Counted from the stretch's first letter, positions 49,134-60,905 are shown. The stretch is 64,000 nt of DNA from Gemmatimonas sp. (GCA_965279375.1 OZ257156.1:3200001-3264000), one strand, 5' to 3'. Notes: generated by a model from the letters alone, not told the origin. Numbers and translations are program-made.

Positions 49134-49264
49134 GACCGGGGTATGAGGGCACATTGCAAAGTACCGCTCGCCACCGCCGCTCGACAGCGTTGCTCGACCA
49201 TACACCAGCGAACGCACGGCCTACTATTCGGGACCGATCGTCGCGCCTTCCTCTCCCCTCGCAT

Positions 49265-50083
49265 ATGCGCATCGACACTCGACGCTCGCTCGCCACAGGC
49301 CTGACTGCTGCATTCCTGGTGCTCACGGGCAGCGGTACCGTCCTCGCGCAGAGTGCAAGCGGGGGCGTGCGGCACTATCGAATCGACAGCAAGACCGAGC
49401 AGCTGGTGGATGCCGCGGCGATCGGCGCCGGAAAGCAGCAGGCGCTACTCGATCGGTCCGCGTTTCTCCGCGTGACGCTGGCCGATTCGGGAGCCGCGTC
49501 GACCATGCGCGTCGTCATCGATTCGCTTGTGGAGCGCGGCCCCAATTTGCCGCCGGGCATCGCGGCCACGGTGGACAGCGCCCGAGGCAAGGTCTTCACG
49601 GCGGCGCTCGACAAGGCCGGAAGCGTGACCCAACTCGCATATCCGAGTGCCGGCGGCACGTTGGCCACGGCGCTGGGCGGGCAGCTTGAGGTGTTCCTGC
49701 CGACCCTCAAGGCTGGCTTCGCGACGGGTGATACATGGACCATTCGCAGCGAACGGCCACAGACGATCACCAATGGACGCCTGACGGTGAAGCGCAGCAC
49801 GTCGTATACCGCCAAGGGTGAAGCGCTTCGGAATGGGGCCCCCGCACGGCGGCTCGACTTCACCTTCACGACGTCGGTGACCGGGACGCAGCAGCTCGGT
49901 GCGGCCTCCGCGCAGGTGGAGGGGACGTCCGTGGGCACTGGCACCGCGTTCGTTTCGCGCGCGGGCGTGTACCTCGGAGGCACGCGCACGGAAAAGGTCG
50001 AGCGCAGATTGCAACTCGATGGAGCGCCCGCGCCGGTGGTGGTGACCGCACAGAGCACCACCTCCATCACGCTGGTCAAGTAG
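49265..50083 (+). CDS. Hypothetical secreted beta-rich protein
   Basis: Signal peptide (TRRSL..VLA-Q); coherent codon usage; no recognised motif. Confidence 0.7.
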   Translation: MRIDTRRSLATGLTAAFLVLTGSGTVLAQSASGGVRHYRIDSKTEQLVDAAAIGAGKQQALLDRSAFLRVTLADSGAASTMRVVIDSLVERGPNLPPGIAATVDSARGKVFTAALDKAGSVTQLAYPSAGGTLATALGGQLEVFLPTLKAGFATGDTWTIRSERPQTITNGRLTVKRSTSYTAKGEALRNGAPARRLDFTFTTSVTGTQQLGAASAQVEGTSVGTGTAFVSRAGVYLGGTRTEKVERRLQLDGAPAPVVVTAQSTTSITLVK

Positions 50084-50145: not shown

Positions 50146-50172
50146 GAAATCCGGCGTGCGGTGAGCGTCGTA
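50146..50172 (+). promoter_or_regulatory. Putative ECF-sigma (SigK/RpoT-like) promoter
   Basis: GAAATCC-16 nt-CGTA about 100 bp upstream of the DUF4331 operon. Confidence 0.4.
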
Positions 50173-50271: not shown

Positions 50272-50994
50272 ATGCCCCGTTCGTTTGTCACCAGGCGCCT
50301 GCTGCGCAATGCCGCATTTGTCGTCGCCAGCGTTACCGCGCTCACCGTCGCGCAGCGCGTCTACGCGTCCGATCACCAGGACACGCCCGAAGTCGAGCTG
50401 AATCCGCGTACGGACATCAACGATGTCTATGCGTTCCCGGGCTCCAGCGCCGATCGCATCGCGCTCGTACTGACGACGTCGAGCCCCATCGCGGGCACGT
50501 CGGCGTCGTTCGACCCGAATCTTCTGTATCAGCTGAAGATCGACAACACGGGCGACGCCGTCGAAGATCGCGTCATTCAGATCACCTTCGACGACGGTGT
50601 GGGTTCCGCGCAGAAGTACACCGTGCGCGGCCCGGTCGTACCCTCGATGACCGGCACCAAGACGGCGCTCGTCACGACGGGCGATGTGGTCACGGGCAAT
50701 GTCGGTAGCACGGCAGGTTCCGCCACCGCCACGCAGGTGTTCGCCGGGTTGCGCGCCGATCCGTTCGTGATCGATCTCGAACAGTTCTTCAACATCATCC
50801 CGGACCGTCGCCCGTCCACCGGGCCGCTCTCCGTACAGAATGGTGCGCCCGCCGGAGCGTTCCGCACGCCTGGCGTGGACTTCCTGAAGCCGTTCAATGC
50901 GCTCGCGATCGTCATCGAACTTCCCAAGGCGCTGCTGCAGTCCGCCACCGCTGCTGACGCGAAGTTCGGCGTCTGGGGCACGATCAGCCGCTAG
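50272..50994 (+). CDS. DUF4331 family secreted protein (N-terminal half)
   Basis: Signal peptide then SDHQDTP; DINDVYAF, Y.LKIDNTGD, VFAGLRADPF..DL; GGAG SD. Confidence 0.8.
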   Translation: MPRSFVTRRLLRNAAFVVASVTALTVAQRVYASDHQDTPEVELNPRTDINDVYAFPGSSADRIALVLTTSSPIAGTSASFDPNLLYQLKIDNTGDAVEDRVIQITFDDGVGSAQKYTVRGPVVPSMTGTKTALVTTGDVVTGNVGSTAGSATATQVFAGLRADPFVIDLEQFFNIIPDRRPSTGPLSVQNGAPAGAFRTPGVDFLKPFNALAIVIELPKALLQSATAADAKFGVWGTISR

Positions 50995-51071
50995 TTCGTC
51001 GCTGAGTCGCGCCGCATCACCGCAACTGCGCTGCATCTACTACGCCCTTTCACATACTCGGAGCTCTATCC

Positions 51072-51632
51072 ATGCGACAGCTGTTCTCGCCGCGCGCGTT
51101 CGCGCTGGCCCTCGCGATTCCCGTCCTGGCGGCTTGCTCGGACGACAACAACGACGGCGGCGGCATCACCACGCCCACGACGCCCGTCCGCACCTACACG
51201 CAGGTCGAGCGACTCGGCAATCCGCTCGTCAGCGAAGTGTTCTTCATGAAGCGCGATCACGGCCTGCACAACAGCACCGCACCGGCCACCGATGTCGCCA
51301 ATGATTTTGGTGGCAAGATCAAGGCGTTCACGAACGCGTTCAACCGTGGTCCTGCCATCGCCAACACGCTCGCGGCGGTGCTCGTCCCCGACATGTTGAT
51401 GGTCTACCCCAATCGCGCGGCGAACACCTCTGGTTGGTTGAGCTGGGCGCTCGCCAATGGCTACGGCGGACGCAATCTGCAGGATGACGTCGTCGACGCC
51501 GGCCTCACCGCCATCTTTGGCAAGCTGCTCGATCCGACGGCGACCGCGTTGGCTGGACTCACGTCGGACAACATCAGTACGTCGACGCGCACGTACCTGA
51601 CGACCTTCCCGTACCTGGAAGCGGCACGCTGA
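51072..51632 (+). CDS. DUF4331 family lipoprotein (C-terminal half)
   Basis: LAAC lipobox; QVERLGNPLVSE, PDML, GGRNLQDDVVD, FPYL; GGGAG SD. Confidence 0.78.
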   Translation: MRQLFSPRAFALALAIPVLAACSDDNNDGGGITTPTTPVRTYTQVERLGNPLVSEVFFMKRDHGLHNSTAPATDVANDFGGKIKAFTNAFNRGPAIANTLAAVLVPDMLMVYPNRAANTSGWLSWALANGYGGRNLQDDVVDAGLTAIFGKLLDPTATALAGLTSDNISTSTRTYLTTFPYLEAAR

Positions 51633-52876
51633 TGTCGATACGGACGATGCGTCGGCTGGTACTCGTTGCCATCGCTGCGGCACTTGGCGGTCTGGCCATC
51701 GTCCGTACGTCAGACCTCACGCCGGCCGCGACAAGGCAAACCACGAAAATCGCGGCGGTACAGCACGAACCCGGATTCTCCGAACGCGATATGCGCGACG
51801 AGCAGATTCGGGTGTGGCATCAGGCCCTCGATGCCGACCCAACGAGCGCGATTGCGTTGGGTCAGCTCGCAGCCTTGCATCTGCAGCGTGCCCGCGAAGG
51901 CGGCACGTGGGATGACTACGTACAGGCCGAGTCATTCGCGCGTCGCTCGCTCGGCAAACGGACACAACGCAATGCGGCGACCGCCTCGACGCTGGTCTCT
52001 GTGTTGCTGGCGCAGCATCGCTTCACGGAAGCGCGCGATGTGGCGGCCGAACTGGTGGAGCGCGAGCCCGACATCCCGCAGTATCGCGCCACGCTCGGCG
52101 AAGTCGCCATGGAGCTTGGTGACGACGCGACGGCCGAGCGGATGTTTCGCTCGGTGTGGCGGGAGCGCCATCTGTTGACGATCGCGCCGCGCGTTGCGCG
52201 TTGGCTCGAACTCACCAATCATGTTCGCGAGGCGCGGCAGCTACTGATTGCGGCGCGCAACGACGCCGTATCGCGACGCGACGTGGCCAAGGAAACGCAG
52301 GCCTGGTTCGAGATGCGCGTCGGCGACCTGGAGCTGCGCGACGGGCATCTGCGCGCAGCCGAGACGGCGTTCCGCGCGGGGCTGGCCATCGAGCCGGATG
52401 ATCCGCGACTTCTTGCGGCAATGGCGCGACTGGCCGACGCGAAGGGCAACGCGGCTGATGTCGCATCGTGGGGAGAACGCGCCATCGGATTGCAGCTCGA
52501 TCCAGCAACGCTCGGCCTCGTAGGCGATGCGTACGCCGCGCAGGGCGATAGTGCACGGGCGGCGGAATACTTCCAGTCTCTCGAAGTCGCGGTCAGCATG
52601 CAGCCGGGAGCGTATCATCGCGCGTGGAGCCTGTACCTGCTCGAGCACGGCCTCCGTGTGGACGACGTGCTGCGCAAGGCGCAGGACGAACTGGTGCAAC
52701 GCAAGGACATCTACGGCTACGACATTCTGGCGCTCGCGCTCTACAAGTCCGGGCGACAGGCGGAGGCACAAGAGGCGATGCGGCAAGCGCTGCGACTGAA
52801 CACGCCCGATCCGCTGTTGCGCCGTCATGCGCAGCTGATCAACGCGCCGTTGATCGCCTCGGCCGTGGTGCGCTGA
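51632..52876 (+). CDS. Tetratricopeptide-repeat protein with N-terminal anchor/signal
   Basis: TGATG coupling; helical Ala/Leu/Glu/Arg repeats such as LALALYKSGRQAEAQEAMRQAL. Confidence 0.82.
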   Translation: MSIRTMRRLVLVAIAAALGGLAIVRTSDLTPAATRQTTKIAAVQHEPGFSERDMRDEQIRVWHQALDADPTSAIALGQLAALHLQRAREGGTWDDYVQAESFARRSLGKRTQRNAATASTLVSVLLAQHRFTEARDVAAELVEREPDIPQYRATLGEVAMELGDDATAERMFRSVWRERHLLTIAPRVARWLELTNHVREARQLLIAARNDAVSRRDVAKETQAWFEMRVGDLELRDGHLRAAETAFRAGLAIEPDDPRLLAAMARLADAKGNAADVASWGERAIGLQLDPATLGLVGDAYAAQGDSARAAEYFQSLEVAVSMQPGAYHRAWSLYLLEHGLRVDDVLRKAQDELVQRKDIYGYDILALALYKSGRQAEAQEAMRQALRLNTPDPLLRRHAQLINAPLIASAVVR

Positions 52877-52878
52877 AC

Positions 52879-53484
52879 ATGTCGGAACTCTGGGCATTCG
52901 CGCAGCTGGGATTCGGACACATCGTCGCGTGGGATGCGGCGGATCACATTCTGTTCCTGCTGGTTCTGGCGGCTATCTACCGCGGCCGCGATTGGCGCGC
53001 GGCGCTGGCGGTGATCAGCGCGTTCACTGTTGGTCATTCGCTGACGCTCGCGCTCGCGGTCACCGATACGCTCGTGCTCCCTTCCCGCATCGTCGAATTT
53101 CTGATTCCCGTGACGATCGTCGCGACGGGCGTTGAGAATCTGTGGCTGCGCGAACGAGCCGCTGCGGGAACGTCAGCGAGACATCGGCCAATCTTCGCCG
53201 GCCTGTTCGGCCTTGTGCATGGCGCTGGCTTTGCGGGCTACCTCAAGAGTCTCTTCGTGGCGCAGCTCGCGCTCCCGTTGCTTGGCTTCAACCTTGGCAT
53301 CGAGGTGGGGCAGTTGGTCGTGCTCGCCGCCGCTGCGGTCGTATTCCTCACCGGCGATCGACTGTTGCGCGTACTGTTCGCGCCGCGGACCGCCTCGAGT
53401 GCGTTTCAGTGGCGACTGATGTGTGTGTCCGCCGTCATCACCGTGATCGCGAGCGGGTGGGCGTGGGAGCGCTTTCCGCGATGA
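52879..53484 (+). CDS. HupE/UreJ family membrane protein (putative Ni/Co transporter)
   Basis: LGFGHI, DHILFLL, AFTVGHSLTL, VEFLI..TI, FGLVHG.GFA, FNLGIEVGQ. Confidence 0.9.
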   Translation: MSELWAFAQLGFGHIVAWDAADHILFLLVLAAIYRGRDWRAALAVISAFTVGHSLTLALAVTDTLVLPSRIVEFLIPVTIVATGVENLWLRERAAAGTSARHRPIFAGLFGLVHGAGFAGYLKSLFVAQLALPLLGFNLGIEVGQLVVLAAAAVVFLTGDRLLRVLFAPRTASSAFQWRLMCVSAVITVIASGWAWERFPR

Positions 53485-53990
53485 GCACGAACGTGTGGCG
53501 GCGGTGGGGAGTGGTCGCGGCCTCGATGGCAATGCTGGTTGCCTCGCCACGACTGGCGCACGCGCACGCGATCCATACCACGATGACTGTGGTGACCGCC
53601 GATGCCGGAGGGGTCACGCTGCGCATTCGATCGTTCGCGGATGACTTCTCCGGCGCCGTTGCTCGGTATGCCGGCCGGTCGGCTCCTCGCGATTCGTCCG
53701 TGCTGGAGGCCGAAGTGCTGCGCTATGTGCGAGCGCAGTTCACTGCGGCGTCGTCAAGCGGCACTGCACTGCAACTCAGCTCCTGTGGCATCACACGCGC
53801 CAAGGAGCTGTACTGGGTGTGTGTGCGCATTGACGGTGCGCGATCGCTGGCCGGCCTGCTGCTGCGCAACCGCATGCTGACCGAATGGCACGCCGATCAG
53901 GTGAACATCGTGCAGGTTGAAGGCCCCAAATCCCGACGAACGATGCTCTTCACGAAGAACAGTGCTCCCGCCGCTATCGGCGCGGCATGA
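53481..53990 (+). CDS. DUF6702-like secreted protein
   Basis: ATGA coupling; signal peptide ending AHA then HAIHTTMT; IRSFADD; N.ML.E...DQVNIV. Confidence 0.7.
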   Translation: MSTNVWRRWGVVAASMAMLVASPRLAHAHAIHTTMTVVTADAGGVTLRIRSFADDFSGAVARYAGRSAPRDSSVLEAEVLRYVRAQFTAASSSGTALQLSSCGITRAKELYWVCVRIDGARSLAGLLLRNRMLTEWHADQVNIVQVEGPKSRRTMLFTKNSAPAAIGAA

Positions 53991-55056
53991 GCACGGTGTA
54001 GTCGAAGTCGAGCACGACCGCAGGATCGTACGCGCCGTTCGCGTCCTGGTACGGAAAGTCTGCACAGGCGCGATCCTTCGTCGCGACGGTGCGCAGGCGC
54101 ATCGCACCTATGTCCGATCGCCCGGGCAGCGCGTCCTTCGACAACACCTCCGTCCACGCATAGATGGTGTCGCCCGCGAAACAGGGCGCCACGTGCCGCC
54201 CTCCGTTGATGGCCGCGATCGTCTGCGCGTTCGCCAAGCCGTTGAACGACAGCGCACGTGCGAGGCTGATGATGTGGCCACCGTACACGATCCGTCGCCC
54301 GAAGCGTCCCTCGCGTTCCACGTGCGAGTTGAAGTGCACCTTGGCCGTGTTCTGGTAGAGCCGAGCCGCGAGCATGTGCTCCGCCTCCTCGATTGTCATA
54401 CCGTCCACATGATCGATGTGCTCGCCGACGGCGTAGTCGTCCCAGAGAAACGGACTGCCGGCCATGGTCGTGTCGTAGCGCCCCGGTGCGACGGCGTACG
54501 GCACGTGCAGCGTTGCAGTTGCCACAGATTCAGACAACTCGGGGACGACTGGCGTCGGGGCCGCTGCCGACACAGCGCGCTTGCGCACCATGGCCCAGCG
54601 CGTGTACTCGACCACCATCGCACCATGCTGATTGGTTCCCACCGAGCGCACGTACACGACGCCGGTCTTTCCGTCCTTGTTCTCCTTTACGCCCAGCACG
54701 GTGGACGTGGTCGTCACCGTGTCGCCCGGATACAGCGGCTCACCAAACCGACCGTCGGCGTAACCCAGATTGGCGATGGCGTTGAGCGATACGTCAGGCA
54801 CGGTCTTGCCAAAGACCAGGTGAAACGCGAGCAGACTATCCACCGGCGCGGTGGGCAAGCCAAGCGATTGCGCGAACGGCGCTGACGAGTTGATCGCGAA
54901 GCGCCCGCCGAAGAGCGCTGTGTAGAGCGCGACCTCGCCGGTCGTAACCGTGCGCGGCGTGGCGTGCTGAATGACTTGTCCGAGAAAGAAGTTCTCGAAG
55001 AAGTTGCCAGCACGCGTCTTACCGGTGAGTCCGGTGTCGACCGGCGTCGCGTTCAT
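53974..55056 (-). CDS. mch: Mesaconyl-C1-CoA hydratase (beta-methylmalyl-CoA dehydratase), double MaoC fold
   Basis: KT.AGNFFE.F..GQVI.HATPRTVT, FGKTVPDVSLNAIANLGYA, YQNTAKVHFN, YGGHIIS.ARALSFNGL; cluster context. Confidence 0.92.
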   Translation of the reverse strand: MNATPVDTGLTGKTRAGNFFENFFLGQVIQHATPRTVTTGEVALYTALFGGRFAINSSAPFAQSLGLPTAPVDSLLAFHLVFGKTVPDVSLNAIANLGYADGRFGEPLYPGDTVTTTSTVLGVKENKDGKTGVVYVRSVGTNQHGAMVVEYTRWAMVRKRAVSAAAPTPVVPELSESVATATLHVPYAVAPGRYDTTMAGSPFLWDDYAVGEHIDHVDGMTIEEAEHMLAARLYQNTAKVHFNSHVEREGRFGRRIVYGGHIISLARALSFNGLANAQTIAAINGGRHVAPCFAGDTIYAWTEVLSKDALPGRSDIGAMRLRTVATKDRACADFPYQDANGAYDPAVVLDFDYTVLMPRR

Positions 55057-55060
55057 CGGT

Positions 55061-56104
55061 TCAGAACCCATAGGCTGCAGCGAGCTCCGGATCCTTTCGT
55101 GCGACGAGCTCTGCGAGGTCCACGATCACCTTCGCCTGCTTCCACGTCGCGTCGTCCTGCATCTTCCCGTCGATAGTGGCCACACCGCTGCCCGACGGAA
55201 TCGCCTCGATCACGCGCTTGGCGAACAGCACTTCCTTCACATCCGGACTGAAGACACGACGCGCGATGGCGATTTGATTGGGAGCGAGTGACCACGCGCC
55301 GCTGCATCCCATGATGAATGCGTTGCGGAACTGTGCCTCGCATCCCGCTTCGTCCTTGAGATCGCCAAACGGACCGTAGAACGCACGGATACCGTGTGAC
55401 ACGCAAGCGTCCACCATGCGCGCGACGGTGTAGTGCCACAGATCCTGCTGCACGAACGTTCGCGCCGCGCCATCGTCGGTTGGATCACCCAGCACGCCGT
55501 AGAATGGATGCCCGCCGCCGACTCGCGTTGTCTTCATGCCGCGCGATGCCGCAAGATCCGCCGGCCCGAGGCTCATGCCATGCATACGCGGACTCGCGCC
55601 CGCGATCTGCTCGACGTTCTTGACCCCTTCGGCGGTCTCCAGAAGCGCATGCAGCAGGATGGGGCGCTTCACCTGATAGCGCGCCTCCAGCAACGCGAGA
55701 TACTGATCGACAAAGTGGATGTCCCACGGTCCCTCCACCTTGGGAATCATGAACACGTCCACCTTGTTGCCGGCTTCGCGCACGATGTCGTGCAGATCGT
55801 CGAGGAACCACGGGCTGTTGAGACAGTTCACTCGCACCCAGAGTGCGGTGTCGCCAAAGTCATTGTCGCGCGCAACGCTGATGAACCCCTGTCGCGCCGC
55901 TTCCTTGTCGTCGATGGGGATAGCGTCTTCCAGATTGCCGCAGAGGACATCGGTCTGCTTGGCCATCTCGGGCACACGGGCGCGGATCTTCTCGATGTGC
56001 GGCGGAAAGAAGTGAATCATCCGCTCGGGGCGCACCGGGAGTTCGCGCAACGGCACAGGTGCACCGATGGCGAGCGGCTTGTAGAAATTCACAGGGAGCT
56101 TCAT
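55061..56104 (-). CDS. mcl: (S)-malyl-CoA / beta-methylmalyl-CoA / (S)-citramalyl-CoA lyase, Chloroflexus type
   Basis: [84 protein letters not shown] match the recalled C. aurantiacus Mcl. Confidence 0.95.
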
Positions 56105-56140
56105 ACCGGTTACCAGTTTCGGGTTACGGGTGGCGAGTAG

Positions 56141-57361
56141 TTAGGAGACGGGCCCCGACACCACATGCGCGTCGTGGAGTGCGCCAACGGCGGCGGCGCT
56201 GAGGCCGAGCACGTCGAGCAGGATCTCGTCGGTGTGTTGGCCGAGTCGTGGAGCGCTGGCTGCGGGGAGTCGGTCGGAGGCGCTGAAGTGCAGGGGAGTG
56301 CCGGGAGTCAGATAGTGGCCGGTATCCGGATGCGTCACGTCAGCAAACAGCGGGTTGTCTGTTGAGAGATCGAGATCTTCCAACAGCGCTTCGCGCACCG
56401 TCCGATACGGGCCCCATGTCACGCGATGTGCGTCCAGCGTCGTGCGCACATCGGTCAGCGGGCGTGCGGCAAACCACGGTTCGAGCAGCGCGGCGATCTG
56501 TTCGCGTGCCAGGAACCGGTTGCCCTCGGTCGCGAGATCGAGCCCCAGCGACTCGCCGAGCGCGCGCACATCCTCGGCGATGCCCGTTGCCTTCACCAGT
56601 GTGCTCCACTGCAGCTCCGTGAGTCCGACGACCATCACGCGCGCACCGTCCGCCGTGGTGAAATCGCGTCCGAAGGCACCGTACAGGTAGTTGCCGTAAC
56701 GCGGCCGATCCTCATCGTTGACGGACACTTCCGCGATCATCCCCAGATTGCCGAGCATCGCCAGCCCGACATCCTTGAGTGCGAGCGTCACGAGCTGCCC
56801 CTCACGCGTACGCGAGCGATGGCGTTCGGCTGCGAGAATCGCCACCGCGATCATGTTCCCCGTGATGGCGTCCCACGCCGGAAATACATGGTTAACCGGA
56901 TCGGACGCGTCGGGTGCGCCTGTCAGGGCGGGGAAGCCGAGCGCAGGATTGACGGTATAGTCCACCTCGGATCCGCCGTCCCGGCGGCCGAGGAGGTTGA
57001 CCATGATCAGATCGTCGCGCTGGGCGCGCAGGCGTTCGTAGTCGAGCCAGCCGCGCGCGGGGAAGTTGGTGCTGAAGATGCCGGCGTCCGCACCCGGTGC
57101 GCAGATCAGTTGCGTGAGCAATTCCTGGCCGCGCGGGTTTCGCAAATCCACCGCAATCGATCGCTTGCCCTTGTTGAGCCCATCCCAGAACAGGCTATGG
57201 CCCGTCGACTGTGAGACGGGCCAGCGTCGATAGTCGAGGCCACCGCCAATCTGATCGAAGCGGATCACATCAGCGCCAAGCTGGGCCAGCGTCATGCCAC
57301 CCAGCGGCGCCGCGACGAACGCGGACCCTTCGACGATGCGCATGCCGCGCAACACGCCCAT
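56141..57361 (-). CDS. mct: Mesaconyl-CoA C1-C4 CoA transferase (2-methylfumaryl-CoA isomerase), family III
   Basis: VEGSAFVAAPLGGMTLAQLGADVIRFD, GGGLDY.RWP, GRRDGGSEVDYTVN; TGATG coupling to smtB. Confidence 0.93.
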   Translation of the reverse strand: MGVLRGMRIVEGSAFVAAPLGGMTLAQLGADVIRFDQIGGGLDYRRWPVSQSTGHSLFWDGLNKGKRSIAVDLRNPRGQELLTQLICAPGADAGIFSTNFPARGWLDYERLRAQRDDLIMVNLLGRRDGGSEVDYTVNPALGFPALTGAPDASDPVNHVFPAWDAITGNMIAVAILAAERHRSRTREGQLVTLALKDVGLAMLGNLGMIAEVSVNDEDRPRYGNYLYGAFGRDFTTADGARVMVVGLTELQWSTLVKATGIAEDVRALGESLGLDLATEGNRFLAREQIAALLEPWFAARPLTDVRTTLDAHRVTWGPYRTVREALLEDLDLSTDNPLFADVTHPDTGHYLTPGTPLHFSASDRLPAASAPRLGQHTDEILLDVLGLSAAAVGALHDAHVVSGPVS

Positions 57362-58587
57362 CAGATGACCCGCTTCTGCCGCAGCGTTGCGATCTCCGAA
57401 TCGCTCAGTTCCAGCAATTCTCGCAGCACTTCGTCGGTGTGTTGCCCAAGCGTGGGGCCTAGGCTGCGGATGCTCCCGGGCGTCTCTGACAGCAGCGGTA
57501 CAGGTGACGGCACGATGATGGACTCACCGGTCGAGGGTTCGTCCACCGCCACAAGATTGCGGCGCGCGTGAAACTGACGATCGCCAAAGATGTCCGCGAT
57601 GTTGTTGAGCGGTCCTGCCGGCGTATCGGTGGCGTAGCAGCGCTCGAGCACCTCTTCTCTCGTAAGCGAGCCGCACCAGTCGCGGACGATCTCGTTCACG
57701 TCGTGGCGGTGATGCAACCGCGTCTTCTGCTCGCCGTATGTACTCGACGAGGCAAGCTCGGGGCGGCCCATCGCCAGTGCCAGTCGCATGAACAGCTTGT
57801 CGGTGGCGCACGAAATGGCCACCCACTTGCCGTCCTTGGTGGCAAAGTGTCCGTGAGGACAGGCGAAGTCGTTGTGCGACGAGCCCAGTCGCTCGCGCAC
57901 GATGCCGTACATCGCAAAGGCGGGTGCCAGCTCCTCGGTGGCGCGGAATACCGATTCATACAGTGCCGCGTCCACGTACTGCCCTTCGCCCGTCGCCTCG
58001 CGATGACGTAGCGCCATCAGCACGCCGAGGCAGCCATAGAGCCCGGTCATGTAGTCGCCGAGCGTCGTGGAGCCCGGGGTCACGGGAGTGCCCTTGGGCA
58101 TACCGGCGAGGTATGCGATGCCGCCGACGGCATGCGCGACACGCGCGAATCCAGGTCGGTCGCTGTAGGGGCCCGTTTGTCCGTAGCCCGTGACCCGCAG
58201 CATGATCAGTCCCGGATTGATCTCGTGCAGCACATCCCACCCCAGGCCCCACTTCTCGAGCGTGCCGGTGCGGAAGTTCTCGCAGAGGATGTCGGTCTTG
58301 GCGACAAGCTGCTTGAACACCTCGACGCCTTCGGGCCGGCGCAGATCGAGCGTGACGGAGCGCTTGTTGCGCCCTTCGCTCATCCACGTGAGCGTATCGC
58401 CGCGCTTGGAGGGGGTGCCGAAGCGACGCAGGGCATCGCCGCCGACCGGATGCTCCACCTTGAGCACGTCCGCGCCGAACTCGCCGAGAATGGTGGCGCA
58501 GTACGGCGCCGCGATCACGGTCGCAATATCCATCACGCGGATGCCGTCCAGCGGCAACGTGCTGTTCGCTTGCTTCGTGGAGGTCAT
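57361..58587 (-). CDS. smtB: Succinyl-CoA:(S)-malate/(S)-citramalate CoA-transferase subunit B
   Basis: Family III CoA-transferase; [49 protein letters not shown] match recalled SmtB. Confidence 0.88.
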
Positions 58588-58658
58588 GGCTGCGTCGAAA
58601 TCCGCTGAGCGTGAGGCATTCGTCGGTTAACCGTTCGTTGGTCGGCCGCAGGACCGGA

Positions 58659-59909
58659 CTAGATGATCTTGTGTTGCCGCAGGCGCTGAATCTCGGCCGC
58701 CGATATGCCGAGCAGCTCGCGCATGACCTCCACCGTGGCATCACCGAGCGTCGGTCCCAGACTGTCGATGCGCCCGGGCGTCGCCGAGAGCGTTGGCACG
58801 ACGCCTGGCACCACGACATCTCCGATGCCCGGTTCATCGAAGCGCGCGAGGTTGCCGCGGGCGATGAAGTGTTCGTCCTCGAAGATGTCGGCGATGCTGT
58901 TGACCTTCCCCACCGGCACTTCCTCGGCCAGACACTTCGTCAGCACCTCGTCGCGCAGTTGACTCCCCACCCACTCGATCACGAGCTGATTGACGACATC
59001 GCGCGCCGCCAGCCGCTTGCGCTGATCGCCGTACAATCCGGACGACGCGAGCTGCGGTTGCTCCATCGCCACCGAGAGTCGCTCGAACATCTTGTCGGTC
59101 GTGCAGGCGATCGCGATCCACTTGTCGTCTTTCGTGCGGAAGTGCCCGTGCGGACAGGCCACGAAGCTCCCCGATCCTTCGCGCTCGCGAATCCGTCCAT
59201 CCACGCCGTAGGCAGCCGCGATCTCTTCCAACACGCGAAAAACGGCCTCGTAGATGCCAACGTCGATGATCTGCCCCTTGCCGGTCCGTTCCTTGTGGCG
59301 CAGCGCGATCATGATGCCGATCGCCCCGTACAGACTGGCGATGTAGTCGCCGAGGGGCACGGTGCCCGGAAGTACGGGCGTTTCACCCGGAAAGCCCGCG
59401 AGATAGTTCAAGCCACCGAACGCCTGCGCGATGTGCGCAAACCCGGAGCGACGGCGATACGGACCTGTCTGTCCGTAGCCGGATACCCGCAGCATCACGA
59501 GACCCGGGTTTGCGGCGCTGAGTTCCTTCCAGCCGAGTCCCCACTCTTCCATCGTGCCCGGACGGAAGTTCTCGATCAGCACATCCGATTTGGCCACCAG
59601 CTTGAGAAAGAGCTGCACGCCTTCCGGTTGTCGCAGATCGACCGTGACGGACTTCTTGTTGCGCGCCTCACTCAGCCAGTTGAGCGTCGCGTCGGGGCGC
59701 TTGGTCGGCGTGCCGAAGCGCCGCATCGGATCACCCGCGATCGGGTGTTCGACCTTGTACACCTCGGCGCCGAACTCTCCGAGCATCGATGCGGCGTAAG
59801 GGCCGGCGAGAAAGTTGCCGACGTCCAGCACTCGCACGCCGGTGAGCGGGCGTACCGTCTGGCCCTGCTCGGCCGCTGGTGCCGCCTCCGCGTCATTGGC
59901 TCGAGTCAT
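58659..59909 (-). CDS. smtA: Succinyl-CoA:(S)-malate/(S)-citramalate CoA-transferase subunit A
   Basis: Paralog of the adjacent gene; DVGNFLAGPYAAS, LNWLSEARN, RRSGFAHIA, ACPHGHF; GGGAG SD before ATG 59909. Confidence 0.88.
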   Translation of the reverse strand: MTRANDAEAAPAAEQGQTVRPLTGVRVLDVGNFLAGPYAASMLGEFGAEVYKVEHPIAGDPMRRFGTPTKRPDATLNWLSEARNKKSVTVDLRQPEGVQLFLKLVAKSDVLIENFRPGTMEEWGLGWKELSAANPGLVMLRVSGYGQTGPYRRRSGFAHIAQAFGGLNYLAGFPGETPVLPGTVPLGDYIASLYGAIGIMIALRHKERTGKGQIIDVGIYEAVFRVLEEIAAAYGVDGRIREREGSGSFVACPHGHFRTKDDKWIAIACTTDKMFERLSVAMEQPQLASSGLYGDQRKRLAARDVVNQLVIEWVGSQLRDEVLTKCLAEEVPVGKVNSIADIFEDEHFIARGNLARFDEPGIGDVVVPGVVPTLSATPGRIDSLGPTLGDATVEVMRELLGISAAEIQRLRQHKII

Positions 59910-60007
59910 CGCGTGCACTCCCACGAAAGCCTGAAGTTCGGCAGCGCCGATACGGGATCGGGCCGCCGCGAGTATTTTCCACTGAATCACTACCGTCACG
60001 CTGCGCT

Positions 60008-60025
60008 GCTGCAACTTTGTGCAGC
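60008..60025. promoter_or_regulatory. Palindrome in the smtA/meh divergent promoter region (possible operator)
   Basis: GCTGCA-ACTTTG-TGCAGC. Confidence 0.35.
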
Positions 60026-60056
60026 TCTTGAGCGCGCTTCCCGCCTTCGCCCTGTC

Positions 60057-60905
60057 ATGACAGAACCTGTGGTGGAGTATCGCGACTGGATAGGGCGCAT
60101 GGAAAGTCTTCACGATCCGCTCTGTCCAACGCAAGCAGCGGCTGCCGCTGCGACATTCGATGAGCCGGACACGCCCGTCGGCGTTGGTGATCCGCTGCCC
60201 CCACTGTGGCACTGGTTCTACTTTCTGCCTCGCGCGATGCAGCAGACGCTGAACGGCGATGGCCACCCCGCGCGTGGGGAATTCATGCCACCGGTACCGT
60301 ATCCGCGGCGCATGTTCGCTGGCGCGCGCCTCACGGTGCATCGCCCTCTTCTCATTGGGCATGGCGCGCAGCGAGAGGGCGTCATTCGTGATGTCGTGCT
60401 CAAGTCGGGTCGGACAGGAGCGCTCGCCTTTGTCACGGTGGGCTATCGCATCGTGCAGGACGGCGTGCTCTGTATCGAGGAGGAGCAGGACATCGTGTAT
60501 CGGGAGCCGGGTGTTCCGGTGGTGGCGCCGAATGTCACCGCGTTGCCGCCCCTCGCCCCCGGGGTATGGTCACGCATGGTTTCGCCGGACTCACGTCTGC
60601 TCTTTCGGTTTTCGGCGCTAACGTTCAACGCGCACCGAATTCACTACGATCGCGCGTACGCGATGGAGCAGGAGGGGTACCCGGGACTCGTCGTGCACGG
60701 GCCGCTGACCGCCATGCTGATGGTGGGTCTTGTGCGCCAACACTCGCCGCGGTCGGTTCGCGGCTTCACCTTTCGCGGCTTGGCTCCTCTCTTCGACCTC
60801 TCCCCGTTTCGGATTTCCGCCCGCCCGGTCTCGGATGACGTGCACTGTCTGGCGGAAGGCCCGGACGGAAAGCCGGCGCTCGAAGCCACCGTTCAGCTGC
60901 AGTAG
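60057..60905 (+). CDS. meh: Mesaconyl-C4-CoA hydratase (3-methylfumaryl-CoA hydratase; itaconyl-CoA hydratase family)
   Basis: WIGR, LPPLWHWFYF, DGHP.RG.F.PP, RRMFAG, EEQDIVYR, LFRFSALTFNAHRIHYD, GLVVHGPL; cluster context. Confidence 0.9.
   Translation: MTEPVVEYRDWIGRMESLHDPLCPTQAAAAAATFDEPDTPVGVGDPLPPLWHWFYFLPRAMQQTLNGDGHPARGEFMPPVPYPRRMFAGARLTVHRPLLIGHGAQREGVIRDVVLKSGRTGALAFVTVGYRIVQDGVLCIEEEQDIVYREPGVPVVAPNVTALPPLAPGVWSRMVSPDSRLLFRFSALTFNAHRIHYDRAYAMEQEGYPGLVVHGPLTAMLMVGLVRQHSPRSVRGFTFRGLAPLFDLSPFRISARPVSDDVHCLAEGPDGKPALEATVQLQ

Follow-up and report, generated by a model that had tools for sequence, protein, structure and literature searches.

A conserved five-gene envelope cassette of Gemmatimonadota and the possible metal loading of its exported DUF4331 protein

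The window analysed here, a stretch of 64,000 nucleotides from the genome of Gemmatimonas sp. (GCA_965279375.1 OZ257156.1:3200001-3264000), carries a cassette of five co-oriented genes, encoding the two halves of a split, exported DUF4331 protein, a tetratricopeptide repeat (TPR) protein, a HupE_UreJ_2 membrane protein and a DUF6702 protein. This locus raises the question of whether the DUF4331 protein captures a transition metal for import or is itself the protein that receives the metal. We tentatively prefer the second answer, giving it somewhat less than an even chance: the cassette would build and metal-load the exported DUF4331 protein, which would itself make use of a nickel-class ion and not act as an import receptor. 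A first-pass annotation of the locus had proposed a relay for metal capture or metal loading. A conserved transition-metal system of the envelope, the predicted exposure of its His motifs and a predicted partnership of the TPR protein with DUF4331 all stand, and the choice between capture and loading now leans to loading, with DUF4331 as the client.

The five open reading frames lie on the plus strand. A gap of 77 bp separates genes 1 and 2, whereas the last four are as tightly linked as first annotated: genes 2 and 3 overlap in TGATG, genes 3 and 4 are 2 bp apart, and genes 4 and 5 overlap in ATGA. The start of the DUF4331 profile is matched by gene 1, and genes 1 and 2 cover complementary parts of the profile. 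The host genome is one contig of 5.3 Mb (99.95% complete) with a single DUF4331 locus. The closest relatives of the cassette are all from Gemmatimonadota; among the 301 genomes of this phylum that were searched, DUF4331 was found in 59 and DUF6702 in 89. Neighbourhoods were read for the best 80 of 305 confirmed loci, and 56 were counted after leaving out 24 with less than 4 kb downstream. Downstream of the DUF4331 N-terminal half (N-half), these 56 loci, which are kin and hence not independent, all carry the C-terminal half (C-half) and the TPR gene, while DUF6702 is present in 52, HupE in 46 and all four genes together in 46. The linkage of the five genes is beyond chance.

Outside Gemmatimonadota, 12 plasmid loci with an exported DUF4331 were read. 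The TPR gene follows DUF4331 in six of them (three by annotation, three as read by eye), six have a permease of the Ni/Co type no more than four genes from DUF4331, and DUF6702 is annotated in none. In five loci from outside the phylum (L089, L090, L091, L095 and L097), the permease has, as judged by eye, an N-terminal extension with His first after the predicted signal peptide. Thus, co-occurrence of the five genes elsewhere, on which the first-pass annotation had made its proposal depend, is borne out within Gemmatimonadota, but the exact set including DUF6702 was seen only there; in other phyla, DUF4331 and TPR are accompanied by a permease with a predicted fused His1 domain. Because the TPR gene recurs across phyla while the arrangement of permease and DUF6702 changes, the core of the cassette is DUF4331 plus TPR, and the permease part is variable.

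The DUF4331 N-half matches 1800 clusters at 50% identity, DUF4331 is found on plasmids of Cyanobacteriota, Actinomycetota and Pseudomonadota, and 29 of 150 N-half relatives are fused forms that also match the C-half profile. A frameshift or assembly artefact was rejected as the origin of the split because 66/66 orthologues carry a separate lipoprotein signal on the C-half. In a Croceicoccus locus (L097:6576-7322), the lipoprotein C-half of a split DUF4331 has its motifs in reversed order, by eye an apparent circular permutation. In two database proteins of 541 aa each (P0182 and P0184), a NicO-family permease is continuous with a DUF4331 N-half that bears a signal peptide, either as a true fusion or by stop read-through.

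The residues at the N-terminus of DUF4331 were then compared, with export and cleavage judged by hydropathy and the (-1,-3) rule and with the query included in all orthologue counts. Cleavage after VYA had been predicted to leave the N-half starting with Ser-Asp-His, and cleavage after AHA to leave DUF6702 starting with His-Ala-Ile-His. Both motifs are present. In the N-half, D34 and H35 are kept in 74/74 orthologues. Of 150 distant representatives listed from the 1800 clusters, 137 have a residue aligned with His35, and it is His in 123; some fused homologues (e.g. P0138 and P0145) are without it. A hydrophobic core is present in 121 of the 122 distant proteins that have the His and a leader, and for these 122 the rule permits a cut that leaves the His third in 116, second in 51 and first in one. 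In DUF6702, the predicted mature start is His29 (His1), with His32 as His4; H29, H32 and D55 are kept in 54/54 orthologues and D54 in 53/54, and the rule fits a mature His1 in 46/54. The HupE_UreJ_2 protein also keeps the histidines first noticed in it, with H14, D22, H23, H53 and H114 present in 50/50 orthologues. The rule-based cleavage predictions and the conservation of the histidines in homologues both support the first-pass annotation.

DUF4331 proteins without a signal peptide reach the same spacing by a different route. Among the best 120 of 2374 such matches, which are 73-100% identical to the query, 109 start with MSHH, eight with MAHH, one with MGHH and two with LSHH, giving an x-Ser/Ala/Gly-His-His start in 120/120. 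Plasmid copies of this kind from Alphaproteobacteria and Actinomycetota, with identity to the query as low as about 26% in some, begin with Met-Ser-His/Asn-His in 9/9 cases, one start having been re-assigned to an internal Met. As Met is removed before Ser, the His would become third in the mature cytoplasmic protein. That two processing routes give equal spacing argues that the free amine and His3 may act together, similar to an amino-terminal Cu(II)- and Ni(II)-binding (ATCUN) site. A free N-terminal amine, His3 and a residue other than Pro at position 2 are predicted for 116 of 122 exported and 120 of 120 cytoplasmic proteins. An Xaa-Xaa-His terminus binds Cu(II) and Ni(II) tightly, and Ser-Asp-His is a putative metal-binding site.

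Fused homologues of DUF4331 were predicted to fold confidently, with a predicted local distance difference test (pLDDT) of 90.9 for the cytoplasmic P0276 and 90.5 for the exported P0170; the first residues of the P0276 model are the least certain (pLDDT <50 at 1-3). The best structural match of both models is the starch-binding protein Sas6 (7UWU), with Z 8.0, a root-mean-square deviation (rmsd) of 5.5 and 211 aligned residues for one and Z 8.1, rmsd 4.2 and 192 aligned residues for the other, values near the background of the tool. Lower matches are to DOMON-like (Z 5-6), CBM9 and glucodextranase domains (1ULV, 2IVF chain C and 1I82). The aligned ranges extend into the C-half, suggesting that it contributes strands to the predicted sandwich. 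Foldseek gave no DUF4331 match in the PDB at E<=0.001, a sequence search of the PDB gave 0 matches for the DUF4331 profile and 0 for DUF6702, and a search of the ESM Atlas for entries without PF14224 gave no usable match. The Sas6 match, together with fasciclin genes in 8/80 loci, fits an alternative in which DUF4331 is a glycan-binding or adhesion protein with a CBM74/CBM9-like fold and structural Ca2+, the metal genes serving something else. We consider this very unlikely, for Z of about 8 is the background level of the tool, and His3 under two processing routes, the cytoplasmic forms and four classes of Ni/Co permease would be left unexplained.

Modelling of the two DUF4331 halves with the TPR protein, a check proposed in the first-pass annotation, placed the TPR protein on DUF4331 with a score of 0.85, compared to 0.00 for the best of three controls. 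The score mark was reached by 116/157 solved and 2/215 mismatched pairs, counts that apply only roughly to a three-chain job. The two halves together had pLDDT 87-88, and replacing the N-half lowered the non-partner chains to pLDDT 57. Across runs of the TPR-DUF4331 model, at least 86% of contacts agreed, with a partner pLDDT of at least 89. Part of the modelled interface is formed by the N-half segment 36-47, which comes immediately after His35, and by a groove of the TPR protein rich in arginine. In the TPR protein, 23 of 49 interface residues are at least 90% conserved versus 71 of the 314 other residues. The model supports binding of the DUF4331 N-terminal arm by the TPR protein.

To weigh receptor against client, we considered the cytoplasmic forms and the permeases. 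In 4/89 loci, a cytoplasmic DUF4331 stands directly upstream of a HoxN-type NiCoT (L099, L100 and L180) or a PF04955 HupE/UreJ protein (L105). A cytoplasmic protein cannot capture metal for import, and its position beside an importer therefore points to a client. Moreover, the permease beside DUF4331 alternates among four Ni/Co-type classes, namely PF13795, PF04955, HoxN-type NicO and the His-rich NicO of L089 and L090, which we take to be RcnA-like and thus of an efflux family; such alternation would be expected where each client has a transporter to itself, as in sodN-sodX-sodT and in the hydrogenase and NicO of this genome. A strict rule by which exported forms go with exporters and cytoplasmic forms with importers was rejected, being broken by P0182, P0184 and L109. 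The TPR gene was found in 0/80 cytoplasmic DUF4331 loci, only 45 of which have at least 1.5 kb downstream.

These observations would fit the following course of events. An RskA-controlled extracytoplasmic function (ECF) sigma factor, encoded elsewhere in the genome, would turn the operon on. The N-half would be exported and cleaved to expose Ser-Asp-His, and would form one beta-sandwich protein at the membrane together with the lipid-anchored C-half. The TPR protein, which has an N-terminal hydrophobic segment (residues 9-27) and would be membrane-tethered, may serve as a maturation holdase by holding the acidic arm (36-47) behind the His in its arginine-rich groove. The ion would be brought by HupE_UreJ_2 together with DUF6702, the His1 protein; these two would form a portable supply pair, which is located beside M1 metallopeptidases as well. 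Among the candidate metals we put nickel first; copper and cobalt would also fit, and zinc is possible.

The loaded DUF4331 protein would most likely protect against stress, either by enzyme activity or by acting as a metal sink. Next to cytoplasmic DUF4331, the gene met most often encodes an alpha/beta hydrolase (22/80), presumably of the non-heme haloperoxidase type; ferritin-like, peroxidase, glyoxalase-like, glutathione S-transferase and flavodoxin genes are each neighbours at a single locus, and one exported copy lies near glutathione reductase. With no background rate behind these counts, the neighbours give a weak hint at stress protection. At L109:3911-6854, an exported DUF4331 is followed by a c-type cytochrome, DUF4198 and a PF04955 HupE/UreJ protein, with no TPR, and the cytochrome hints at a redox role. 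In three related roseobacter plasmids (L093, L098 and L103), DUF4331 lies within type II secretion genes, next to a prepilin peptidase and with no permease in view, which favours the client reading, and is possibly a secreted substrate. A bolder form of the proposal is that DUF4331 represents a new class of nickel (or copper) enzyme with an N-terminal Xaa-Xaa-His hook, probably acting against oxidants or electrophiles and metallated outside the cytoplasm by TPR, HupE_UreJ_2 and DUF6702, the permease delivering the ion outward rather than importing it. We regard this form as doubtful. To our knowledge, few nickel enzymes are known, and a natural active site of the ATCUN type would be unusual.

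The permease itself matches PF13795 from residue 7 on and gave no PF04955 match at E<=0.1; PF04955 was also absent from a profile search of the genome in which two controls gave matches. The HupE/UreJ proteins of hydrogenase and urease clusters that were scanned are PF04955. Accordingly, the first-pass annotation had the HupE/UreJ kinship and the histidines right, but the record of Ni/Co transport it drew on belongs to the transport-tested PF04955 and not to PF13795. Comparison by hhalign with HupE, RcnA-like and NiCoT pairs gave probabilities below 1%, values that are uninformative given the two-sequence templates. On its family and conserved residues, the protein is likely a transition-metal permease. 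No transport assay of a PF13795 protein was found in the accessible text of PMC12537917.

The permease and DUF6702 also occur apart from DUF4331. A second cluster in the genome (G000:C1:5278658-5282021; L004 and L008) contains HupE_UreJ_2, an M1 peptidase and DUF6702, an order that recurs in at least 5/20 other loci examined. Among 20 hand-picked DUF6702 loci from genomes without DUF4331, seven have a Pfam-confirmed M1 peptidase, five of these with HupE_UreJ_2. M1 peptidases are reported as neighbours of DUF6702 in the available part of PMC12537917. A third HupE_UreJ_2 protein (G000:C1:139477-141462; L005) is longer, being predicted to begin with a His1 domain and extended at its C-terminus by a part with a CxxCH motif, and lies near a PQQ-type protein, a heavy-metal P-type ATPase and a promoter pair of DUF547 and VTT genes.

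A strong rival, which we judge less likely, is an uptake relay, in which the TPR-held DUF4331 and DUF6702 would capture scarce Ni, Co or Cu and feed import through HupE_UreJ_2, as a split 'anglerase' with an extra receptor. As far as the accessible text of PMC12537917 goes, a DUF6702 member binds Ni2+ with pM affinity but shows no enzyme activity, and the proposal made there is that a His1 domain fused to HupE/UreJ-2 hands metal on to the permease; the His-first permease extensions in five loci outside Gemmatimonadota agree with this. On the other side, cytoplasmic DUF4331 keeps the His3 start and can adjoin importers, HupE_UreJ_2 and DUF6702 also flank M1 peptidases, the RcnA-like permeases belong to an efflux family, and the predicted regulon (DUF547/radical SAM, VTT, DUF4394 and PEP-CTERM) has no other obvious metal transporter among its top sites. 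Four further observations favour uptake and at the same time count against DUF4331 as a client: importer-type permeases stand beside exported DUF4331 (P0182, P0184 and L109), a misfit with outward delivery; TonB-dependent receptors are found in 16/80 loci; a Ni/Co importer lies near cytoplasmic DUF4331 in only 1/80 metagenome loci; and the pair of permease and DUF6702 persists without DUF4331 (L203 and L205).

Other points tell against the client reading as well. The permease is missing from 10/56 Gemmatimonadota loci, with DUF6702 directly after TPR in L016, L019, L022, L036, L037 and L073 and DUF6702 missing too in the other four (L052, L056, L060 and L074). S33-D34-H35 lies outside the confident interface residues of the TPR model. 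M1 peptidases are usually zinc enzymes, so the metal brought by the supply pair need not be nickel. A four-nitrogen ATCUN site is usually a tight and fairly inert holder, and DUF4331 proteins share a single near-invariant His, along with Asp and Arg residues, with no catalytic site evident. In addition, structural Ca2+ may be held by many of the DUF4331 Asp residues, similar to the DOMON/CBM74-like folds that were matched.

The control of the cassette adds to the first-pass annotation an ECF-type promoter. The motif ATCC-N16/17-CGTA lies within 200 bp upstream in 61/67 related loci, compared to 113/6700 shuffles, and with a matrix trained on other loci the site of the cassette ranks 2 of 867 candidates in the genome. 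Elsewhere, the motif was found in 3/12 exported loci of other phyla, in 0/9 cytoplasmic plasmid loci and in 1/69 cytoplasmic metagenome loci. An ECF sigma gene is present in 16/80 loci and an RskA gene in 11/80. In this genome, a candidate sigma factor (G000:C1:30090-30815) is 52% identical to a cassette-linked sigma, has an adjoining RskA_C gene and has its own promoter site at rank 20 of 867. A redox switch by a SigK-type disulfide was rejected for this candidate, which has no Cys. The promoter fits the ECF18 consensus given in Table 4 of PMC13492112, and DUF4331, DUF4394 and fasciclin are among the neighbours listed for ECF18 subgroups in the supplement of PMC7826278, the parts of these papers available to us.

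The top five sites in the genome precede DUF547 plus radical SAM, the cassette, a DUF4394 lipoprotein, a PEP-CTERM protein and a VTT protein, and the sixth is without a clear gene. At G000:C1:150684 and 150701 (L191), two divergent ECF-type sites face DUF547 plus radical SAM and VTT, respectively, the first being the top score of the genome. The sites in front of a collagen-linked DUF4394 lipoprotein (G000:C1:546322; L192) and of the PEP-CTERM protein (2842299; L193) are of this ECF type too, and no main-text mention of DUF4394 was found in the literature searched.

A further alternative is metal resistance, in which the cassette would be ECF-induced, the permease would export excess Ni, Co or Cu, and DUF4331 and DUF6702 would be passive sinks in the envelope. 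The tight hold of Xaa-Xaa-His on Cu(II) and Ni(II) and the His-rich NicO permeases of L089 and L090 are consistent with such a role. However, one ion per two-chain protein of about 360 residues with its own TPR protein would be a costly sink, importer-type neighbours occur, and the rpoP upstream region was silent in a reporter under metal stress in a wild-type background, as stated in the accessible text of PMC13492112. We hold resistance to be improbable. The coordinates of the cassette and of its predicted elements are given in Table 1.

Table 1. Coordinates, in the window, of the cassette genes and their predicted elements
Feature	Position	Strand	Length	Basis
Predicted ECF18/ECF19-type promoter, ATCC-N16-CGTA (-35/-10 boxes)	50149-50172	+		Motif conservation
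DUF4331 N-terminal half, exported	50272-50994	+	240 aa	PF14224 profile 1-236, E 8e-30, 104.9 bits (cut-off 27)
Predicted mature start of the DUF4331 N-half, Ser33-Asp34-His35	50368-50376	+		(-1,-3) rule, cleavage between VYA and SDH
DUF4331 C-terminal half, predicted lipoprotein	51072-51632	+	186 aa	PF14224 profile 250-420, E 8e-16, 58.7 bits (cut-off 27)
Lipobox LAAC of the DUF4331 C-half, Cys22	51135-51137	+		Cys in 66/66 orthologues
TPR protein, predicted binder of the DUF4331 N-terminal arm	51632-52876	+	414 aa	Pfam TPR families
HupE_UreJ_2 (PF13795) membrane protein, likely transition-metal permease	52879-53484	+	201 aa	Pfam E 2e-41
DUF6702 (PF20420) exported protein, likely metal shuttle	53481-53990	+	169 aa	E 8e-19, 68.5 bits (cut-off 24)

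The last protein had been called DUF6702-like, a label too weak for what is a true member of the family. No NCBIfam family scored above its cut-off for any of the five proteins. Upstream, an exported-looking protein of about 270 aa (49154-50083, plus strand) has no Pfam or NCBIfam match; it was rejected as a member of the cassette, as it has no Pfam match, lies 5' of the promoter and was found by tblastn in 8/80 loci. Downstream, the region 53974-60362 holds genes on the minus strand: an unrelated MaoC/mesaconyl-CoA hydratase-like gene by Pfam, which converges on the cassette with a 17-bp overlap, and beyond it, by eye, an apparent lyase and several apparent CoA-transferase genes. The window had been described as free of urease and hydrogenase, in accordance with which urease is without a match genome-wide and the single [NiFe]-hydrogenase lies about 1.4 Mb from the cassette. 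The region G000:C1:1762353-1772588 encodes the large subunit of this hydrogenase and, about 8 kb from it, a NicO-family protein, and supply of the hydrogenase by the cassette is unlikely because of that gene.

The cassette is real and conserved, and two of its parts belong to families described in 2025. For the question of how exported proteins come by the right metal in the envelope, it provides a candidate client, a permease and the interface predicted for a putative holdase. With it, one can also ask directly if HupE/UreJ-2 proteins are importers, as in the anglerase model, or supply exported metalloproteins, and it gives a testable role to the widespread DUF4331 family of unknown function. 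In the literature searched, which leaves most subscription journals outside, the DUF4331-TPR core has no main-text discussion and appears only in the neighbour lists of two supplements.

Among known systems, the closest in parts are the anglerases (Ang-1/Ang-2) fused to HupE/UreJ-2 and the DUF6702 'metal sequesterase'. The first-pass annotation knew of no functional description of the assembly; in the accessible text of PMC12537917, published in 2025, two of the parts are described, in that DUF6702 binds Ni, Co or Cu via His1 and His1 domains fused to HupE/UreJ-2 are proposed as metal 'anglerases'. DUF4331 and TPR occur 0 times in its main text, and DUF4331 occurs three times in its source data, as neighbour counts. 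The cassette shares with these systems the PF13795 permease and a genuine DUF6702 protein whose His1 follows the predicted signal peptide. Different from them, its His1 domain is a separate gene and its permease, at 201 aa, has no fused N-terminal domain. Moreover, the tri-His of PaDUF6702 in that source (His1/His28/His32) is not repeated: by eye, the cassette protein has Asp54 in the place of His28 and no His32, and its His4 is invariant.

The PF04955 HupE/UreJ importers are likewise membrane proteins of about 200 aa with His-x(n)-Asp-His near the N-terminus, and they replace PF13795 at L105 and L109, whereas the cassette permease has no PF04955 match, an H-x7-D-H spacing and no linked urease or hydrogenase. 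The DOMON/CBM9-like and CBM74 domains (7UWU, 1ULV, 2IVF chain C and 1I82) are the best structural neighbours of both DUF4331 models, but the matches are weak (Z 5-8, 6-13% identity), and DUF4331 is predicted to add a helical region and the N-terminal His arm. With the ECF18/ECF19 (SigK-RskA-like) regulons, as far as the available parts of PMC7826278 and PMC13492112 describe them, the cassette shares the ATCC...CGTA promoter, a candidate RskA_C anti-sigma factor and the DUF4394, fasciclin and DUF4331 neighbours; different from these, its sigma and anti-sigma genes lie outside the window, and the candidate sigma factor is without the SigK-type disulfide switch.

For the proposed loading, the comparison is with nickel superoxide dismutase, whose site forms at a processed N-terminus with the hook His1-Cys2...Cys6. 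Unlike this enzyme, DUF4331 carries the His third, lacks a conserved Cys and is predicted to fold as a beta-sandwich, and its putative helper is a TPR protein and not a peptidase. Neither DUF4331 half matched Sod_Ni in Pfam, and no Cys remains after processing except the lipid anchor; a genome search for Sod_Ni gave no match with its controls silent too, so absence is not implied. What the two systems would have in common is the way they work: as described in the accessible text of PMC4284471, sodN-sodX-sodT combines a metal client with a maturation factor and a Ni permease that serve it alone, the roles that DUF4331, TPR and HupE_UreJ_2 may play in the cassette.

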